Below are positions 28,400 to 45,083 of a stretch of 64,000 bases of DNA, in pieces. This DNA comes from Escherichia phage ECP2303: sequence record PP261279.1. The stretch is one strand, 5' to 3'. Numbering within the stretch: the first letter of the stretch is position 1; each line of letters begins with the position of its first letter. A program made the translations under genes and the position numbers. The notes beneath the pieces are model-generated. The model was not told the DNA's origin. It worked only from the letters and a program-made list of their open reading frames with translations, and did not search any database.

Positions 28400-28669
28400 T
28401 TATCGAGGCACTCGGTGGATGATTCTGACAGTAACCGCATTCTCATTCATCAAGTAAGCATCCACATCTCTGTAAATATAAAACTTCTGCTCGCTATCAA
28501 CAACACAAGCTACTGCCCCTTCAGAGTTGTCTTCAAAGAAGACCACAACTGCATCGCAGCTTAGTTCATGATACGACTCTCGAAGATTTACAGCAAGAGG
28601 GTTGAAATCGTCACGAAGATCTAAAGTATGGGTTGGATTTACACGTTCTACAATTTTAAGTGTATACAT
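28400..28669 (-). CDS. hypothetical protein
   Basis: 89-aa ORF downstream of the tRNA cluster with AAGGAA RBS. Confidence 0.4.
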   Translation of the reverse strand: MYTLKIVERVNPTHTLDLRDDFNPLAVNLRESYHELSCDAVVVFFEDNSEGAVACVVDSEQKFYIYRDVDAYLMNENAVTVRIIHRVPR

Positions 28670-28715
28670 TTTAAAGGTTCCTTTTGTGTGTATATATTTA
28701 AAGTATAACTAAAGG

Positions 28716-28792
28716 TGGTCTCCACGGAGTGATTCGAACACTCGACCTCCTGATCCCAAATCAGGCGCTCTACCAAGCTGAGCTACGCGGAG
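28716..28792 (-). tRNA. tRNA-Pro (anticodon UGG)
   Basis: Hand-folded cloverleaf: acceptor with C1-G72, D-arm GCTCAGCTTGGTAGAGC, anticodon loop UUUGGGA, T-arm GAGTG-TTCGAAT-CACTC, CCA encoded. Confidence 0.7.
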
Positions 28793-28803
28793 TATTTATT
28801 ATT

Positions 28804-28878
28804 TGGTGGCCCTGGGTGGAATTGAACCACCGTCTGGCGATTATGAGTCGCTTGCTTGAACCTTCCAGCTACAGGGCC
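28804..28878 (-). tRNA. tRNA-Met (anticodon CAU; initiator-like loop CUCAUAA)
   Basis: Acceptor GGCCCTG/CAGGGCC, anticodon loop CUCAUAA, T-arm GGTGG-TTCAATT-CCACC, CCA encoded; could alternatively be a lysidine-modified Ile tRNA. Confidence 0.6.
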
Positions 28879-28879
28879 A

Positions 28880-28955
28880 TGGTGCTGATGGCAGGACTTG
28901 AACCTGCAACCTATTGATTACAAATCAATTGCACTGACAATTGTGCTACATCAGC
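28880..28955 (-). tRNA. tRNA-Thr (anticodon UGU)
   Basis: Acceptor GCTGATG/CATCAGC, D-stem GCAC/GTGC, anticodon stem ATTGA/TCAAT with loop UUUGUAA, T-arm GCAGG-TTCAAGT-CCTGC, CCA encoded; 1-nt spacer from tRNA-Met. Confidence 0.7.
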
Positions 28956-28959
28956 AAAA

Positions 28960-29058
28960 GGTGCTAGGTGATGGAATCGAACCACCTATGTATTCAACGA
29001 CTACCTCGTCTATTTTCAGGATTAAAAATCCTCGCCCTTGCCAAAGGGCTTACCTAGC
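28960..29058 (-). tRNA. atypical tRNA-like gene (99 nt; Lys-type UUUUUAA anticodon loop; ~30-nt insertion before the T-arm)
   Basis: Perfect 7-bp acceptor (GCTAGGT/ACCTAGC), D-arm GCCC-TTTGGCAA-GGGC, 4-bp anticodon stem AGGA/TCCT with loop UUUUUAA, extra hairpin ACGA-GGTAG-TCGT, T-arm GGTGG-TTCGATT-CCATC; too long for a canonical type I tRNA and not folding as a standard type II. Confidence 0.35.
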
Positions 29059-29156
29059 GCAATATGTTGACCATGTGGCTAGTCGGCGATGACGACTGTA
29101 ACATTTGATAATCCGGTTCTGCTTCCGGCTTTCGCTTAATTACAAGGTCAACAATG

Positions 29157-29247
29157 TGGCGGAGAGTAATGGAATCGAACCATCATCGAGTTATCCTCAA
29201 CGGGACGGTTTTCAAGACCGCTTGAGCACCATTGCTCCCTACCCTCC
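29157..29247 (-). tRNA. tRNA-Ser (anticodon UGA), type II
   Basis: Anticodon arm GCGGT-CUUGAAA-ACCGT nearly identical to E. coli tRNA-Ser(UGA); long variable arm; T-arm GATGG-TTCGATT-CCATT; CCA encoded; 91 nt. Confidence 0.7.
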
Positions 29248-29361
29248 TTTATAAATTACACTGATAATGACACTGATTTTCGAGCAGTTAGTGACTAGTA
29301 TAAACGACGATAAATATCAATGTCATTATCTGTATGATTTATGCATTTAAAAATATAAATT

Positions 29362-29448
29362 TGGTGGGGAGTGGTGGAGTCGAACCACCCGAGTCGCAAT
29401 GACAATAGATTTACAGTCTACACCGCTACCTCTACGGGATAACTCCCC
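29362..29448 (-). tRNA. tRNA-Tyr (anticodon GUA), type II
   Basis: Anticodon arm GTAGA-CUGUAAA-TCTAT and variable region TGTCATTGCGACTCG resemble E. coli tRNA-Tyr; T-arm GGTGG-TTCGACT-CCACC; CCA encoded; 87 nt. Confidence 0.65.
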
Positions 29449-29452
29449 AATT

Positions 29453-29527
29453 TGGCACCCCGTACTGGACTCGAACCAGTGTCAACGGCTTAGAAGGCCG
29501 CTGCTTTATCCACTAAGCTAACAGGGC
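29453..29527 (-). tRNA. tRNA-Arg (anticodon UCU)
   Basis: Acceptor GCCCTGT/ACGGGGT (two G-U pairs), D-stem GCTT/AAGC, anticodon stem GCGGC/GCCGT with loop CUUCUAA, T-arm ACTGG-TTCGAGT-CCAGT, CCA encoded. Confidence 0.65.
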
Positions 29528-29585
29528 ACTGGGTGGCTTTCTTTTACACCTGAGCCGCCAGAAAAGGTGGGAGACCATGTTTATA

Positions 29586-29614
29586 ATATTACACTGTTAG
29601 GCAAAGTTTGTCAA
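29586..29614 (-). promoter_or_regulatory. sigma70-type promoter for the tRNA cluster
   Basis: Minus-strand TTGACA (29609-29614), 17-nt spacer, TAATAT (29586-29591) preceded by TG; about 55 nt upstream of tRNA-Arg. Confidence 0.5.
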
Positions 29615-32462: not shown

Positions 32463-33017
32463 TTACTCCCCGCTGTCAATAGCAAGACTCATTGCAATAC
32501 GGTATGCCTCTTCTAATGGTAAGAGTCTCCCCCACACATCCCAACCGACATCAAACTGCCTGCCAAACAACTGCTGTGTGGTTCCGTGAGCATGACCGAA
32601 CAGTTGGACTGATCCGTGAGGCTTTCTGTTCCACTTTGCAAACTGGTAATGGCTCATACAGATCAAATTCTTGTTGTGGCGAAGCTCGTAATAATCTACA
32701 ACCTCATGACCGAACTCTTTCATAATTCTGACAGTCGTTCTTGTGTCATGGTTACCACGAACAAGAATAATATGTCCGTTCAACATATTTAGAACATCTG
32801 GAAGCAGTTTGTTGATATTCTTATCATTAGTGCACGCAATATCCCCCAAGTGAAACACAGTGTCTGCAGGTGACACAACAGAGTTCCACTTGGTGATGAT
32901 TCCCGCATTCATACTGTCAAGATTGTGATCATACTGAGATCTGTGTTTTTGACATGAGTCGAACTCCATTACCCGCTGGTGGAGAAAGTGTGTGTCGCTT
33001 GTTACAAAGTATTTCAT
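32463..33017 (-). CDS. calcineurin-like metallophosphoesterase (putative RNA/DNA 3'-phosphatase)
   Basis: Start at ATG 33017 (GAGGAA RBS); motifs SDTHF, GDIACT, GNHD, GHAHG correspond to metallophosphatase motifs; coupled to the kinase gene. Confidence 0.65.
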   Translation of the reverse strand: MKYFVTSDTHFLHQRVMEFDSCQKHRSQYDHNLDSMNAGIITKWNSVVSPADTVFHLGDIACTNDKNINKLLPDVLNMLNGHIILVRGNHDTRTTVRIMKEFGHEVVDYYELRHNKNLICMSHYQFAKWNRKPHGSVQLFGHAHGTTQQLFGRQFDVGWDVWGRLLPLEEAYRIAMSLAIDSGE

Positions 33018-33024
33018 ACATTCC

Positions 33025-33435
33025 TCATTTAAGTTTAATGCAGTTTTTAAGCTGGCGTTCCATACGATCCACAACCCTGTCTGGAACATCATGAATGCTT
33101 TTATTACCATGGCGGTTTTCAACCACGATCACGGTATAACTATATCCATGACTGATCGCCATGTCAATATATTCTTGCACATATTTTTCTTTTGTAAACG
33201 TATTACTTACCACGATACGGTCGTAGCCCATACGCATCATATCTTCTACGTTATCTTTGCACCATTTTGCTGCAAGTGTTACTTTACTTGCATCCCAATT
33301 GTAATTGCCGTCATCGTCGTACCAGAACATATCGTTCTCAAAATGTGGATACAGACCTTCTAAAGATAGCGCATTTGCCAGTGTTGATTTGCCAGACCCT
33401 GGTAGACCACGCACGATATATAGCATTTTAGACAT
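33025..33435 (-). CDS. P-loop polynucleotide kinase-like protein
   Basis: Start at ATG 33435 (GGAGAG RBS); Walker A GLPGSGKST near N-terminus as in T4 Pnk kinase domain; 136 aa. Confidence 0.6.
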   Translation of the reverse strand: MSKMLYIVRGLPGSGKSTLANALSLEGLYPHFENDMFWYDDDGNYNWDASKVTLAAKWCKDNVEDMMRMGYDRIVVSNTFTKEKYVQEYIDMAISHGYSYTVIVVENRHGNKSIHDVPDRVVDRMERQLKNCIKLK

Positions 33436-33463
33436 AGTAACTCTCCGTTTTAATTTTAATGAT

Positions 33464-33492
33464 AGTATACCTAACTGTTTTGTTAATTTCAA
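33464..33492 (-). promoter_or_regulatory. sigma70-type promoter for the kinase/phosphatase operon
   Basis: Minus-strand TTGAAA, 17-nt spacer, TATACT; about 30 nt upstream of the kinase start. Confidence 0.4.
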
Positions 33493-33495
33493 GTG

Positions 33496-33524
33496 TTGAC
33501 ACCAGGTTATTTGTGTGGCAGAAT
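33496..33524 (+). promoter_or_regulatory. sigma70-type promoter opening the plus-strand block
   Basis: TTGACA, 17-nt spacer ending TGTGG, then CAGAAT; divergent from the minus-strand promoter. Confidence 0.4.
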
Positions 33525-33556
33525 AAAGGGACAAAATGACAAATGAGGAATGTATG

Positions 33557-34471
33557 ATGAAGTATTTTAATGCAGACGACCTGGTTGACAAAGGTCTTGT
33601 AACCAGCAGATATTACCCAGATCTTGGATTAAAGATCTACAAATATGCCAGAAAAGTATTCTACAACAATTTATGGCATTTGTCTCCGCGTTTACTAGAG
33701 TGCCGAGGCATTGTTGTCGGTAATGAAGGAAATGTTGTGGCATGGCCCTTCACAAAAGTGTTTAATTTGGGAGAAAACTCCACCAACCTGCCTGACAATA
33801 AACTTGTGACGGCGGTAGAGAAAAAGAACGGATTCCTTGGTGTGGTATCATCTCATAAAGGTGAACTATTGTTTTCAACAACCGGGTCTCTTGATTCTCC
33901 ATATTGTAACCTTGCAAAGGAAACCATCCAGGAGCAATGTGGTAATTTAGATCTCATCAAAAAGGTTATGGGCCATGAAAACATGACATTCATGTTTGAA
34001 ATTTGTCACCCTTCAGATCCGCATATTGTTCAGGAAGACCATGGCGCATATTTGATAGGTTGCAGATATAACGATTCTGGAATAATGCTACCAGAAGCAG
34101 CTTTAGATGGGATTGCCAAATACCTTGGTGCAAAACGTCCTCACACTGTGCGTGAAATTCCGTTCAGCTATGCAAAAGAATTAGCTGCAGAAACAAGAGG
34201 TGAAGGGTATATGATTCGTAAGCCTTACTACCCTTATGATCTGCAGCTGAAGATCAAGTCTCCATACTATTTGGCACGGAAGGCCGTAATGAGGGGTAAA
34301 GCTTGGAAGATTTGGGATGATGATATCTTTAAACGTATTGACGAAGAGTTTTACGGCATGGTAAACTTCATTCGTAACAATTACACAGAAGATGTGTGGA
34401 ACTGCCTCCTAGAGCAGGAACGCCGTGAGATACTTGACTGCTATTTCCACAACGAGGACTATATGCAATGA
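33557..34471 (+). CDS. RNA ligase 1 (T4 RnlA-like)
   Basis: LECRGIVVGNEG and FNLGEN match T4 Rnl1 (LECRGIMFEMDG, FNLNEN); nucleotidyltransferase motif I KKNGFL matches KEDGSL; start assigned to ATG with GAGGAA RBS (track start 33536). Confidence 0.75.
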   Translation: MKYFNADDLVDKGLVTSRYYPDLGLKIYKYARKVFYNNLWHLSPRLLECRGIVVGNEGNVVAWPFTKVFNLGENSTNLPDNKLVTAVEKKNGFLGVVSSHKGELLFSTTGSLDSPYCNLAKETIQEQCGNLDLIKKVMGHENMTFMFEICHPSDPHIVQEDHGAYLIGCRYNDSGIMLPEAALDGIAKYLGAKRPHTVREIPFSYAKELAAETRGEGYMIRKPYYPYDLQLKIKSPYYLARKAVMRGKAWKIWDDDIFKRIDEEFYGMVNFIRNNYTEDVWNCLLEQERREILDCYFHNEDYMQ

Positions 34472-34826: not shown

Positions 34827-35588
34827 ATGCGACGACTGATCATTATCTCCGGTGCTGGTTTGAGCGCTGAATCTGGTATCCCAACTTTCCGATCTGGTGG
34901 CACTGCAATGTGGGAGAATTTCAGCATCGATGAGGTGTGTAACATCCACACCTTTGCCAAGAACTACTATAAGGTTCATGACTTTTACAATGCACGGCGT
35001 GTAGCTCTTGGCAGTGTTGATCCTAACCTTGCACATCTCCGGATCGCTGAGTGGTATTCCCGCTGGTCTGGTCGTGTGATCAACCTGACCACCAATGTAG
35101 ATGATTTGCTGGAGCGTGCTGGTGTAAAACATGAAGATATTTTACATGTCCACGGATATTTGCCAGAAATAGTCTACAAGGATGATGAAGGGAGTAACGT
35201 CATTAAAGACATTGGATACTCTGAGGTAGATGCAAGCAAGTATACTTGGGTTAAGCCTAATGTAGTGTTCTTCGGAGAAGTAGCTCCAAAGTATACAGAC
35301 ATGTATGACCTGTTGACTTCTCTGACGAGCAATGATATGGTTATCCTTGTAGGGTGCTCCAACACAGTTATCAATTTTAACTGGGAGCTATTCCCTGCCT
35401 GTAATAAGGGGACCAAACTGCTGATCGTTAACAAATACGACTCACAGCATTTAGGGGAGAATGGCATTTCACGTAGTGACATTTACCAGTATGAGGATCG
35501 CGGCATCCCAGTTTGGTTTAACGGGGCTGTTGACGCTTTCTCTGATAAAACATTCATTGACATCGTAGAAAACTTTATGGAACTGTAA
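34827..35588 (+). CDS. Sir2-family (sirtuin-like) NAD-dependent protein, lacking the zinc ribbon
   Basis: GAGLSAESGIPTFR, TTNVDDLLERAG, catalytic-type HG (LHVHGYL), VVFFGE, LVGCS; no CxxC...CxxC zinc motif. Confidence 0.8.
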   Translation: MRRLIIISGAGLSAESGIPTFRSGGTAMWENFSIDEVCNIHTFAKNYYKVHDFYNARRVALGSVDPNLAHLRIAEWYSRWSGRVINLTTNVDDLLERAGVKHEDILHVHGYLPEIVYKDDEGSNVIKDIGYSEVDASKYTWVKPNVVFFGEVAPKYTDMYDLLTSLTSNDMVILVGCSNTVINFNWELFPACNKGTKLLIVNKYDSQHLGENGISRSDIYQYEDRGIPVWFNGAVDAFSDKTFIDIVENFMEL

Positions 35589-44276: not shown

Positions 44277-45083
44277 TTGAGCAAGAAAGAGTCCAACGAC
44301 AAATATTACACAGACCCCGAGTATGCAGAATATCTTGTTGGTAAAGTAAAAGGTAAGTATGGGAATTGTGCATACGTTGAGCCTTCTGCTGGAAAGGGTT
44401 CTTTTTCAAAACTATTTTCAGAGATACTGTCGTATGATTTGGTACCAGATCCTGAATTTGAAGGCCCAACCCCGTGTATTAAGGCAAACTTCTTAGAGGT
44501 GTATCCCAAGGCTGATGTATTCATAGGTAATCCTCCATTCGGCAAAAATTCGTCTTTAGCTTGCAAGTTCTTTAACCACTGTGCATCATTGCTAGAGCCT
44601 GGTGGAGCTATAGCCTTCATCTTGCCACGGACTTTTGAAAAAATATTTTTTGCAAACAAACTGGACATGTCGATGCACCTTATTTATAGCGAAAGGTGCC
44701 CCAAGAACTCGTTTTTACTTAACGGCAAACCTTATGACGTGCCATGTGTTTTCCAAATTTGGGAGAAAAAGGTGTGCAGTAGGGATCCTGTAGAGATCGG
44801 GGAGAATAAGTTATTTTCTTTTAGCACTCCGGATGATTACGACTTCTGTATAAGACGTGTTGGGTATAATGCTGGGAAAGTATTGGGAGAGGATGACCCA
44901 AAATCTGAAGAATCAACATATTTCATAAAATCTTTAGTTGATGGTGTTGACAGAGTGTTTGCTGAGTGCTATTCTTCTTTTCAAGAAGAAGCAGGTAAGA
45001 CTGCTGGAATGAAGAGTATAGGCAAGAAAGAACTACAATACATTTTGGAGACCAGGTATGATCAAAAGCATAGACTTGACTAA
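44277..45083 (+). CDS. DNA N6-adenine methyltransferase
   Basis: Motif I VEPSAGKGSF and motif IV NPPFG; start moved to TTG 44277 (GGAGG RBS) because the track start 44247 lies inside the terminator hairpin. Confidence 0.75.
   Translation: MSKKESNDKYYTDPEYAEYLVGKVKGKYGNCAYVEPSAGKGSFSKLFSEILSYDLVPDPEFEGPTPCIKANFLEVYPKADVFIGNPPFGKNSSLACKFFNHCASLLEPGGAIAFILPRTFEKIFFANKLDMSMHLIYSERCPKNSFLLNGKPYDVPCVFQIWEKKVCSRDPVEIGENKLFSFSTPDDYDFCIRRVGYNAGKVLGEDDPKSEESTYFIKSLVDGVDRVFAECYSSFQEEAGKTAGMKSIGKKELQYILETRYDQKHRLD

Follow-up and report, generated by a model that had tools for sequence, protein, structure and literature searches.

A tRNA-like gene in the tRNA cluster of an rV5-like coliphage

We analyzed a stretch of 64,000 nucleotides from Escherichia phage ECP2303 (PP261279.1; the whole stretch is hereafter the window) and focused on a tRNA-like RNA gene of 99 nt, termed X, that is embedded in a cluster of tRNA genes. 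The window belongs to an rV5-like coliphage of the genus Vequintavirus, its identity being 100% to Escherichia phage ECP2309 over 1 kb and 97-99% to rV5, FV3, Murica and the Vequintavirus isolates of BASEL. The initial annotation of the window had located the element correctly at 28960-29058 but had not stated its strand, which is the minus strand. As transcribed, the cluster consists of Arg(UCU), Tyr(GUA), Ser(UGA), X, Thr(UGU), a CAU tRNA (Ile2-type) and Pro(UGG). The promoter predicted upstream of the cluster is the same site as P(tRNA) annotated in rV5 (DQ832317). The features on which the following sections draw are listed below.

28716-29527, minus strand: tRNA cluster holding X (ARAGORN and Rfam)
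29586-29614, minus strand: predicted sigma-70-like promoter, TTGACA-17-TAATAT, upstream of the cluster (consensus scan, 10/12 matches)
28960-29058, minus strand: tRNA-like RNA gene X (ARAGORN, tRNA-???; Rfam tRNA, 35.5 bits; family covariance model R1, 100.3 bits, E=5e-25)
29058, 28962 and 28961-28960, minus strand: end points of X, namely G1, the discriminator A97 (=A73) and the encoded C74 C75
29052-29058, minus strand: acceptor stem of 7 bp, 5' strand GCUAGGU, pairing with ACCUAGC at 28963-28969 (7/7 pairs kept in 21 homologues, 3 with compensatory double changes)
29034-29049, minus strand: D arm GCCC-UUUGGCAA-GGGC (3/4 stem pairs covary)
29017-29033, minus strand: anticodon-like arm G·AGGA-UUUUUAA-UCCU·G (Rfam alignment; 2/4 pairs covary)
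28987-29016, minus strand: variable region of 30 nt, with the 5' flank AAAAUA, the hairpin GACGA-GGUAG-UCGUU (28996-29010) and the 3' flank GAAUACAUA
28970-28986, minus strand: T arm GGUGG-UUCGAUU-CCAUC (5/5 pairs kept; 1 compensatory and 1 G·U/G-C change; T-loop consensus retained)

The sequence of X reads, from 5' to 3', GCUAGGU AA GCCC UUUGGCAA GGGC G AGGA UUUUUAA UCCU G AAAAUA-GACGA-GGUAG-UCGUU-GAAUACAUA GGUGG UUCGAUU CCAUC ACCUAGC A CC. Its minimum-free-energy fold (-34.2 kcal/mol; z=-3.66) was matched by none of 200 shuffled sequences. The Rfam tRNA model (RF00005) scored X above the gathering score of 29 bits (E=3.7e-5), put a 26-nt insertion in the variable region and read the anticodon-like loop as UUUUUAA, i.e., U32 U33 U34 U35 U36 A37 A38. 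Altogether, X bears a 7-bp acceptor stem, a 5-bp T stem, the T-loop consensus, the elbow contact G19:C56 and a 7-nt loop with U33 and a purine at position 37, all of which are generic traits of tRNA.

Much of the initial annotation agrees with this structure, as the perfect 7-bp acceptor stem, the T arm with the loop UUCGAUU, the UUUUUAA loop and approximately 30 extra nucleotides with an ACGA-GGUAG-UCGU hairpin are all present. Its statement that the element is too long for a class I tRNA-Lys and unlike a standard class II tRNA was borne out as well, and neither ARAGORN nor Rfam folded X as an ordinary tRNA of another identity. On the other hand, the D arm, which had been described as canonical, departs from the ordinary one. 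Position 8 is A and position 14 is U, so the usual U8-A14 tertiary pair is absent, and both A8 and U14 are invariant in the family. Two drawings of the arm are possible: a 4-bp stem that closes an 8-nt loop and, as in tRNA-Sec, a 6-bp stem that closes the 4-nt loop UGGC. Both RNAfold and RNAalifold predicted the 6-bp stem; the two added pairs, U14-A21 and U15-A20, are invariant, so covariation neither supports nor rejects them. The anticodon stem comprises four Watson-Crick pairs and an invariant G·G; one stem position is deleted in the Rfam alignment, and there is no separate position 26.

The D-arm hairpin (29034-29049) followed by GAGGAUUUUU, with the U run at 29024-29028 (minus strand), scores as an intrinsic-terminator-like site. 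This site is probably incidental, and could cause partial termination inside the gene.

Distribution and conservation of the X family

BLAST and pattern scans recovered 33 distinct variants of X from five genera of Vequintavirinae, one N4-like phage and metagenomic contigs.

Vequintavirus: the window, rV5
Avunavirus: Av-05, 19-1-2
Seunavirus: PVP-SE1, 4MG, SSE-121, NINP13076, Cronobacter phages
Mydovirus: KB57, KPP-1, AV124, Ro1
Henunavirus: Hena1, pEp_SNUABM_01
Ithacavirus (N4-like, Schitoviridae): Salmonella phage UTK0002
Lineage unassigned: several metagenomic contigs with X

The RNAs of the family are 99-110 nt long. Each genome carries a single copy, always within a tRNA cluster and usually adjoining tRNA-Thr(UGU), and the gene is retained in all of the 113 records with full-length matches (113/113). 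The phages bearing X infect E. coli, Salmonella, Klebsiella, Cronobacter and Erwinia, and they fall into unrelated families, namely Vequintavirinae and the Schitoviridae genus Ithacavirus. No cellular X was found when 185,579 prokaryotic species genomes (one each) were scanned for ATACATAGGNGGTTNRATTCC: there were two matches, both in stretches without an ARAGORN tRNA gene. We regard these two as chance matches and reject a cellular origin of X. Downstream of X lies unannotated DNA, which amounts to approximately 860 nt in PVP-SE1 (L033 25953-26815; GU070616 65952-66814) and to approximately 160-400 nt at the other Seunavirus, Mydovirus and Henunavirus loci examined.

A covariance model, R1, was built from 21 members and tested on 251 kb of phage sequence. 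The members scored 100-117 bits, with the window copy at 100.3, while ordinary tRNAs scored 32 bits or less; the best non-members were class II tRNAs and long Asn tRNAs (26-32 bits). We then counted pairs on the MAFFT alignment of 21 distinct members, using as the control the same stems with the 3' partner slid by 1-3 columns. Pairing was found in every stem cell (441/441), against 33-46% in the slid controls, and 10 of the 21 pairs had changed on both sides. RNAalifold independently gave the same cloverleaf, with the D stem lengthened to 6 bp and closed by a tetraloop. Furthermore, the D-loop G19 (29041) covaries with the T-loop C56 (28979), the tertiary pair 19:56 being G:C in 13 sequences and U:A in 8. 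We regard this covariation as direct evidence for an L-shaped tRNA-like fold. The full pairing and the 10 compensatory pairs across the 21 homologues contradict the idea, raised in the initial annotation, that X is a pseudogene.

Conservation is not confined to the stems. All of the 33 variants share a 7/5 acceptor/T arrangement and two linker nucleotides. Across genera, there is no variation in A8, in the G·G around the anticodon stem, in the T loop or in the D loop UUUG(G/U)(C/U)AA, and the same holds for the two ends of the variable region, which starts with G(U)AAAA and ends with AUACAUA. The variable-arm hairpin was predicted in most of the 33 variants and is weak or different in a few, with its sequence and length varying (30-40 nt for the whole region). 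A 12-nt motif of the variable-arm loop, GAACUAACAGUA, is kept over differing stems in a subset of Mydovirus, Henunavirus and Ithacavirus (L025-L027, L038-L040 and L043). Altogether, we conclude with high confidence that X is a selected, L-shaped, tRNA-derived RNA of a phage-specific tRNA-Sec-like family.

Three other accounts of the gene can be weighed on the same data. First, X might be a decaying relic that is losing its function in the clade of Vequintavirus and Avunavirus. The encoded CCA, the conserved U73 and C35, which is invariant elsewhere, have been lost there, and the variable arm is at its shortest. We give this little chance, since all stems are perfectly paired and the two genera are separated by two compensatory double substitutions, one at the acceptor pair 4:69 and the other at a variable-arm hairpin pair (A-U to G-C). 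The polymorphisms within Vequintavirus and within Avunavirus are all in loops or preserve pairing, and the retention of the gene in every full-length match also speaks against decay.

Second, the alignment by RF00005 as a class I tRNA with one 26-nt insertion, and the presence of a ligase with a kinase/phosphatase module nearby (see below), would suit an interrupted class I tRNA-Lys. In that case, the insert of approximately 26 nt would be excised after transcription to leave a tRNA of approximately 73 nt, and the phage ligase might take part. The chance of this is very small in our view: the hairpin covaries and its flanks are invariant across genera, which points to a role in the mature RNA, and removal of the insert would leave the anticodon helix short. 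No Rfam intron family was matched at E<1, and no mechanism that splices an insert out of a variable loop is known in bacteria or phages. More generally, no Rfam family except tRNA matched X at E<1, and neither a ribozyme (hammerhead-like or other), nor a riboswitch, nor an intron in the insert was found in this search.

Third, ARAGORN drew an alternative fold with the anticodon stem AUUUU/AAAAU, an 8-nt loop and the four-base anticodon AUCC, which would make X a +1 frameshift suppressor, and this label has been copied into GenBank records (e.g., slur16). Such a stem uses the U run and the A run of X, and there is no U run outside the clade of Vequintavirus and Avunavirus; the AGGA/UCCU stem, on the other hand, is kept with compensatory changes in 21/21 sequences. 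We give the AUCC fold next to no credence.

Two additional contacts were considered and rejected. Kissing of the anticodon loop with the variable-arm loop (UCCA:UGGA; GCCA:UGGC in 4MG) is inconsistent in Mydovirus, and 4-nt matches are expected by chance. A loop-E/sarcin-ricin-like motif formed by the AAUA and GAA flanks is not conserved in Henunavirus or in the type-B arms of Mydovirus.

Relationship to tRNA-Sec-like and other known RNAs

The known RNAs closest to X are the tRNA-Sec-like tRNAs, i.e., allo-tRNA and selC*. X is a variant of this kind and not a member, since its 7/5 helix fails the defining trait. In allo-tRNAs and selC* tRNA-Cys, the variable arm is long, the D stem is also long and ends in a tetraloop, the discriminator is G73 or U73, and the anticodons are of many kinds including UCA. 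Some of these tRNAs occur in phages, and tRNA-Sec-like allo-tRNAs function in E. coli translation (PMC5389517). They have been proposed to act as suppressors, missense tRNAs or regulatory RNAs (PMC5389517; review, PMC7609411). The X family shares with them the long variable arm, a D arm able to form a long stem with a tetraloop, U73 in most members and a scaffold combined with diverse anticodons (UCA, UCC, GCC, UAU and UUU); X genes sit in tRNA clusters of phages, where some allo-tRNA and selC* genes are also found. In contrast, the acceptor/T arrangement of X is 7/5 instead of 8/4 or 9/3 (12-bp branch), and its anticodon stem is shorter than the canonical one (4 bp and G·G), not longer. Most members of the X family lack U33, the variable hairpin is set between long, invariant, single-stranded flanks, and the family occurs in phages of Enterobacterales.

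Bacterial tRNA-Sec (RF01852) resembles X in its length of approximately 100 nt, the long variable arm and a D arm that in X may take the form of 6 bp and 4 nt; the UCA loops of Henunavirus and Ithacavirus, YAUCAAA, are close to CUUCAAA of tRNA-Sec. The best score, obtained for the X of Hena1, was 39 bits (E=6.5e-7), below the gathering score of 47, in an alignment that covered the 6-bp/4-nt D arm, CAUCAAA against CUUCAAA, and the long variable arm. X further differs from tRNA-Sec in the acceptor/T arrangement (7/5 vs. 8/5), the discriminator (U or A vs. G) and A33 in the UCA members. The window copy, with the anticodon UUU in place of UCA, was matched better as a generic tRNA than as tRNA-Sec, whereas the copies of PVP-SE1 and Hena1 were matched best as tRNA-Sec (27 and 39 bits, respectively) and fell below the gathering score of RF00005.

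X resembles allo-tRNA and selC* tRNA-Cys in its long variable arm, in a D stem that may reach 6 bp under a tetraloop, in U73 (most members) and in the many anticodons including UCA (PMC5389517; PMC7609411). This likeness allows X to be read as a recoding or mis-acylating tRNA. Such a tRNA would be charged regardless of its anticodon via the long variable arm or the discriminator (by SerRS, or by CysRS/GlyRS through U73), and would insert one and the same amino acid at the codon that the anticodon of each lineage reads, namely UGA (Henunavirus and Ithacavirus), GGN (Seunavirus and Mydovirus) or AAA (this phage). The tRNA-Sec score of the Hena1 copy and its GenBank label, tRNA-sup(tca), agree with this reading, which we nevertheless judge improbable. 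That score does not reach the gathering score, the 7/5 helix is none of 8/5, 8/4 and 9/3, most members have A33 or C33, and the window copy has A73, unlike the G73 or U73 reported for allo-tRNAs possibly charged by SerRS. Phage proteins would be damaged if Ser or Cys were inserted proteome-wide at AAA or GGA. In addition, TGA stops are not avoided in Hena1, in which they account for 11/40 stops of long open reading frames (ORFs), as compared to 8/54 in the window and 5/27 in PVP-SE1. Efficient opal suppression in Hena1 is unlikely also because the read-through extensions are short save one of 58 aa, in one 50-kb sample with crude ORF calling.

The remaining comparisons are more distant. Class II tRNAs (Ser, Leu and bacterial Tyr) likewise place a variable-arm hairpin between the anticodon and T arms, but the unpaired nucleotides flanking it number 1-3, whereas the X hairpin is flanked by 6-7 and 9 invariant ones; the short anticodon stem and A8 also set X apart. 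With rnaC and rnaD of T4 (species 1 and 2), the likeness is positional only: these are small stable RNAs inside a phage tRNA cluster, and rnaC ends in a tRNA-like T arm, but the T4 RNAs are not full cloverleaves. No homology of X to rnaC or rnaD was found by reading the sequences, and R1 found only ordinary tRNAs in the T4 locus (L032).

Anticodon loops, tRNA-Lys content and possible functions of X

The body of X is shared across lineages but the anticodon-like loop is not, as follows.

Henunavirus, Ithacavirus and several metagenomic lineages: YAUCAAA or AAUCAAG (UCA), 7 nt
Seunavirus and Mydovirus: CCNNCMAG (UCC, GCC, once UCA), 8 nt, or 6 nt if C-G closes
Metagenomic contig L052: GUGAUA, 6 nt
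Avunavirus: UUUAUAA (UAU), 7 nt
Vequintavirus: UUUUUAA (UUU), 7 nt

U33 was found only in Vequintavirus, Avunavirus and one further variant (L051), and position 33 is A or C elsewhere. The discriminator U73 and the encoded CCA are strict outside the clade of Vequintavirus and Avunavirus, over six different acceptor-stem sequences; A73 occurs only in Vequintavirus, and Avunavirus has U or C. The combination of UUU, U33, A37 and A73 is specific to Vequintavirus. ARAGORN made no call for X in PVP-SE1, Hena1, L038, L041 and UTK0002. The initial annotation had described a tRNA-like gene with a Lys-type (UUU) loop and an insertion. The Lys-type loop is true of Vequintavirus, but the extra 30 nt are the hallmark of the whole phage RNA family, of which the loops are otherwise not of the Lys type.

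In E. coli, the identity set of LysRS consists of U34-U36 and A73, and the determinant for t6A is U36-A37-A38. Judged from its sequence, the window loop is fully canonical for a tRNA reading ANN codons (U33 and U36-A37-A38). Across lineages, the discriminator appears to follow the loop in the way synthetase identity predicts: UCA with U73 recalls selC* tRNA-Cys, NCC with U73, G1:C72 and C2:G71 recalls Gly, and UUU with A73 recalls Lys.

The rV5-like phages carry no other tRNA-Lys, as the ARAGORN run of the window yielded the same six-tRNA set; for the whole genome of rV5, six tRNAs were reported by tRNAscan and ARAGORN, with X unmentioned (PMC3606486). As to canonical tRNA-Lys genes in related phages, which the initial annotation had proposed to look for, separate and ordinary tRNA-Lys(UUU) genes neighbour a non-Lys X in Av-05, PVP-SE1, Hena1 and L038. 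The canonical phage tRNA-Lys(UUU) genes in the relatives are 76-78 nt long, as compared to 99 nt, with a 30-nt variable region, for X.

Our preferred, albeit tentative, reading is that X serves Vequintavirus as a substitute tRNA-Lys(UUU), of which the divergent body may go unrecognised by nucleases that read the anticodon stem. We infer its expression, processing, charging, decoding and nuclease resistance as follows. In Vequintavirus, the loop would have been remodelled to the Lys type (U33, UUU, A37 and A38) and the discriminator changed to A73. X would be co-transcribed with the cluster from the promoter-like site upstream of tRNA-Arg, its 5' end would be released by RNase P, and its 3' end would be trimmed to ...ACC and completed to CCA by the host CCA-adding enzyme. 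LysRS would then charge X, which would be the only tRNA-Lys(UUU) of the phage, and nucleases reading the anticodon stem-loop of tRNA-Lys should spare it.

The last step draws on work on tRNA-directed defence. AriB of the PARIS system cuts tRNA-Lys at the junction of positions 40 and 41 and reads the stem-loop, and a phage tRNA-Lys with an altered anticodon stem escapes; one swapped base pair confers resistance (PMC11464382). Likewise, a phage tRNA-Lys rescues infection from PrrC (PMC11555353). The anticodon stem of X, AGGA/UCCU, differs at every position from that of the host tRNA-Lys, GUUGA/UCAAU, and thus escape from a stem-reading nuclease is plausible. Like the nuclease-evading tRNA-Lys of T5 (PMC11464382) and the PrrC-rescuing one (PMC11555353), X in the window is a phage gene with a UUU anticodon and an anticodon stem unlike that of the host, in the cluster of a virulent coliphage with tRNA-repair enzymes. 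Those tRNAs, however, are ordinary class I molecules of approximately 76 nt with a few substitutions in the stem-loop, whereas X is 99 nt long with a remodelled core and has relatives that are not of the Lys type.

Several observations weigh against X being a substitute tRNA-Lys. Only CC is encoded at its 3' end, while all of the six canonical tRNA genes of the cluster encode the full CCA. Its anticodon helix is one layer shorter than those of the same six tRNAs. In the RNAalifold alignment, columns 31:38, a possible fifth anticodon pair, read C-G in 13 sequences and U-A in 4 and do not pair in the other 4; the switch from C-G to U-A could mean that U32-A38 pairs in this phage and leaves a loop of only 5 nt. 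The absence of another tRNA-Lys in Vequintavirus is weak to modest evidence, as approximately 15 tRNA genes have been lost relative to the related phages. The X of Avunavirus (UAU; U or C at 73) breaks the discriminator pattern, as A73 is expected for Ile, and it is redundant with an ileX-like CAU tRNA. Outside Vequintavirus and Avunavirus, the loops mostly look non-decoding (A33 or C33; 6 or 8 nt) and the body is the same, so parsimony favours a shared function independent of decoding. Finally, the literature searched (on rV5, Certrevirus, PARIS, retron Eco7/PrrC, Schlafen, ApeA, Septu/SegB and allo-tRNA) did not describe X, nor did it contain expression, charging or nuclease data on it.

In regard to Avunavirus, we also considered a complementary distribution of X and other tRNAs for AUA decoding, and rejected it, as Av-05 has both an ileX-like CAU tRNA and X(UAU). 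The former (L070 9584-9659, minus strand) looks nearly identical to tRNA-Ile2 (ileX) of E. coli, as if it were a recent host copy.

The points above lead to another reading, which we hold to be near-equal in probability to the substitute tRNA-Lys, namely that the X family is a non-decoding, L-shaped, CCA-ended tRNA mimic that binds a tRNA-recognising protein of the host or phage. Such a protein could be a defence nuclease directed at tRNA, a toxin that modifies 3' ends, a synthetase or a modification enzyme. Recognition would take place on a surface made up of the conserved body and the variable-arm flanks, and the short anticodon hairpin would serve as a bait specific to the lineage or as a mere spacer. 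The Lys-like loop of Vequintavirus would then act as a decoy or compete as a substrate, in which case the Pnk/Rnl1 module described below might re-seal it, or it would be a chance outcome of U/A richness. Such a mimic agrees with the contrast between the anticodon-like loop, in which position 33 is A, C or U and the length is 6-8 nt, and the parts that do not vary from genus to genus, namely the D and T loops and the flanks G(U)AAAA and AUACAUA. The anticodon helix, being one layer short, fits it as well. The lack of TGA avoidance in Hena1, whose X reads UCA, is also in line with it. X coexists with canonical Gly(UCC) in PVP-SE1, Hena1 and Av-05, with the AUA-reading ileX-like CAU tRNA in Av-05, and also with Lys(UUU) and Cys(GCA), and it has moved as a free-standing unit between the unrelated Vequintavirinae and Schitoviridae (genus Ithacavirus). 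The rnaC and rnaD of T4 offer a precedent, as stable RNAs without an assigned function in a phage tRNA cluster. On the other hand, the mimic has no known binding partner, and a cleaved decoy would need to be very abundant. A decoy role leaves the UCA versions unexplained, as no abundant host tRNA is known to carry the UCA anticodon. Moreover, U73 and CCA are strictly kept and the discriminator turns to A exactly where the loop turns to UUU, both of which are expected from aminoacylation identity and speak for decoding, or at least for charging.

A further possibility, which we put forward as a doubtful one, is that X is the founding example of scaffolds that are specific to phages and resemble tRNA-Sec, with an acceptor/T helix of 7/5 and a short anticodon arm that can be exchanged. 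Their body would be re-targeted by swapping the loop (UCA, NCC, UAU or UUU), matured by tRNA-processing enzymes and recognised via the variable-arm flanks, and would neutralise tRNA-directed immune effectors or give low-level, lineage-specific recoding, being mobile between phage families.

The RNA-repair module noted in the initial annotation does lie near X, at a distance of 3.4-5.4 kb, and is of the Pnk/Rnl1 type.

32463-33122, minus strand: metallophosphoesterase (Pfam PF00149/PF12850; PHROGs phosphoesterase)
33025-33591, minus strand: AAA_33/polynucleotide-kinase-like ORF (Pfam PF13671; PHROGs polynucleotide kinase)
33536-34471, plus strand: T4 Rnl1-type RNA ligase (Pfam PF09511)

The module had been linked to the UUU version of the element. 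We rejected a tie between the Lys-type loop and the module, since the pair of ligase and phosphoesterase occurs across Vequintavirinae and far beyond. We treat the module (32463-34471) as context only, and an action of its enzymes on X as a possibility. A Sir2-family ORF (34827-35588, plus strand; PF02146, E=1e-26) lies approximately 360 bp downstream of the Rnl1-type ligase. Neither PHROGs nor Pfam assigned a tRNA-related function to the small ORFs neighbouring X.

We made additional observations on the cluster. The 114-nt gap between the Tyr and Ser genes (29248-29361, minus strand) contains a second sigma-70-like match, ATGACA-18-TATACT, at 29297-29326 (minus strand) and is otherwise without annotation. 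In the 98-nt spacer between the Ser gene and X (29059-29156, minus strand), the part at 29074-29142 matches phage P7 and an unannotated segment of phage lambda that lies between orf-64 and S (44866-44934), with 85-88% identity. The spacer folds into a closed multi-hairpin shape (z=-2.2) and has the appearance of a degenerate tRNA-like relic. The plus-strand ORFs at 28729-28917 and 28898-29092, which overlap the tRNA genes, are spurious.

Expanded tRNAs other than X were also found in the relatives. Asn, Trp, Cys and Glu tRNAs, all of class I identity, carry class-II-like variable-arm hairpins with loops mostly of the GAAA type; they are 85-91 nt long and have normal anticodon arms (L033 23933-24017, L070 4636-4726 and L041 8187-8273, minus strand; L069 3167-3253, L038 6275-6360 and L038 9300-9388, plus strand). 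In PVP-SE1, a tRNA-Lys(UUU) of 86 nt (L033 24079-24164, minus strand; GU070616 64078-64163) bears a GAC-GCAA-GUC hairpin in the D loop, and is labelled tRNA-???(ggca) by ARAGORN and tRNA-Lys in GenBank. This group of phages seems to expand its tRNAs habitually, and the examples with normal anticodon arms imply that insertions are tolerated in the lineage.

The labels given to X in public records vary: tRNA-Lys (AAA) in the BASEL phages (tRNAscan-based), tRNA-OTHER in Danish wastewater phages, tRNA-???(atcc) in slur16, with the four-base anticodon 'atcc' that our ARAGORN run also returned, tRNA-TERM in JLBYU08, and hypothetical protein in ECP2309 and others. X is unannotated in rV5. In several GenBank records (PP464953, MK883718 and OQ626344), a hypothetical protein takes the place of tRNAs over the cluster. 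Approximately 19 GenBank records of the MG0656xx series, named 'Campylobacter phage', are 97-98% identical to rV5-like coliphages over 28600-29600 of the window, which suggests that these records are mislabelled or contaminating.

Phage tRNA genes are now seen as tools of counter-defence, as exemplified by the tRNA-Lys of T5, which acts against PARIS, by tRNA-Tyr in the case of retron Eco7 and Septu, and by tRNA-Lys in that of PrrC. X points to a further class of phage tRNA-like RNA, which is not a point-mutated copy of a host tRNA but a rebuilt, oversized scaffold. At least five genera conserve it, in phages that are well studied and used in therapy, and annotation of these phages has labelled it inconsistently or missed it. 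A decoding X would be the first natural tRNA of the tRNA-Sec-like kind to work in E. coli with a 7/5 helix, and would bear on research into phage defence as well as on engineering of the genetic code. A non-decoding X would represent a new kind of tRNA mimic.

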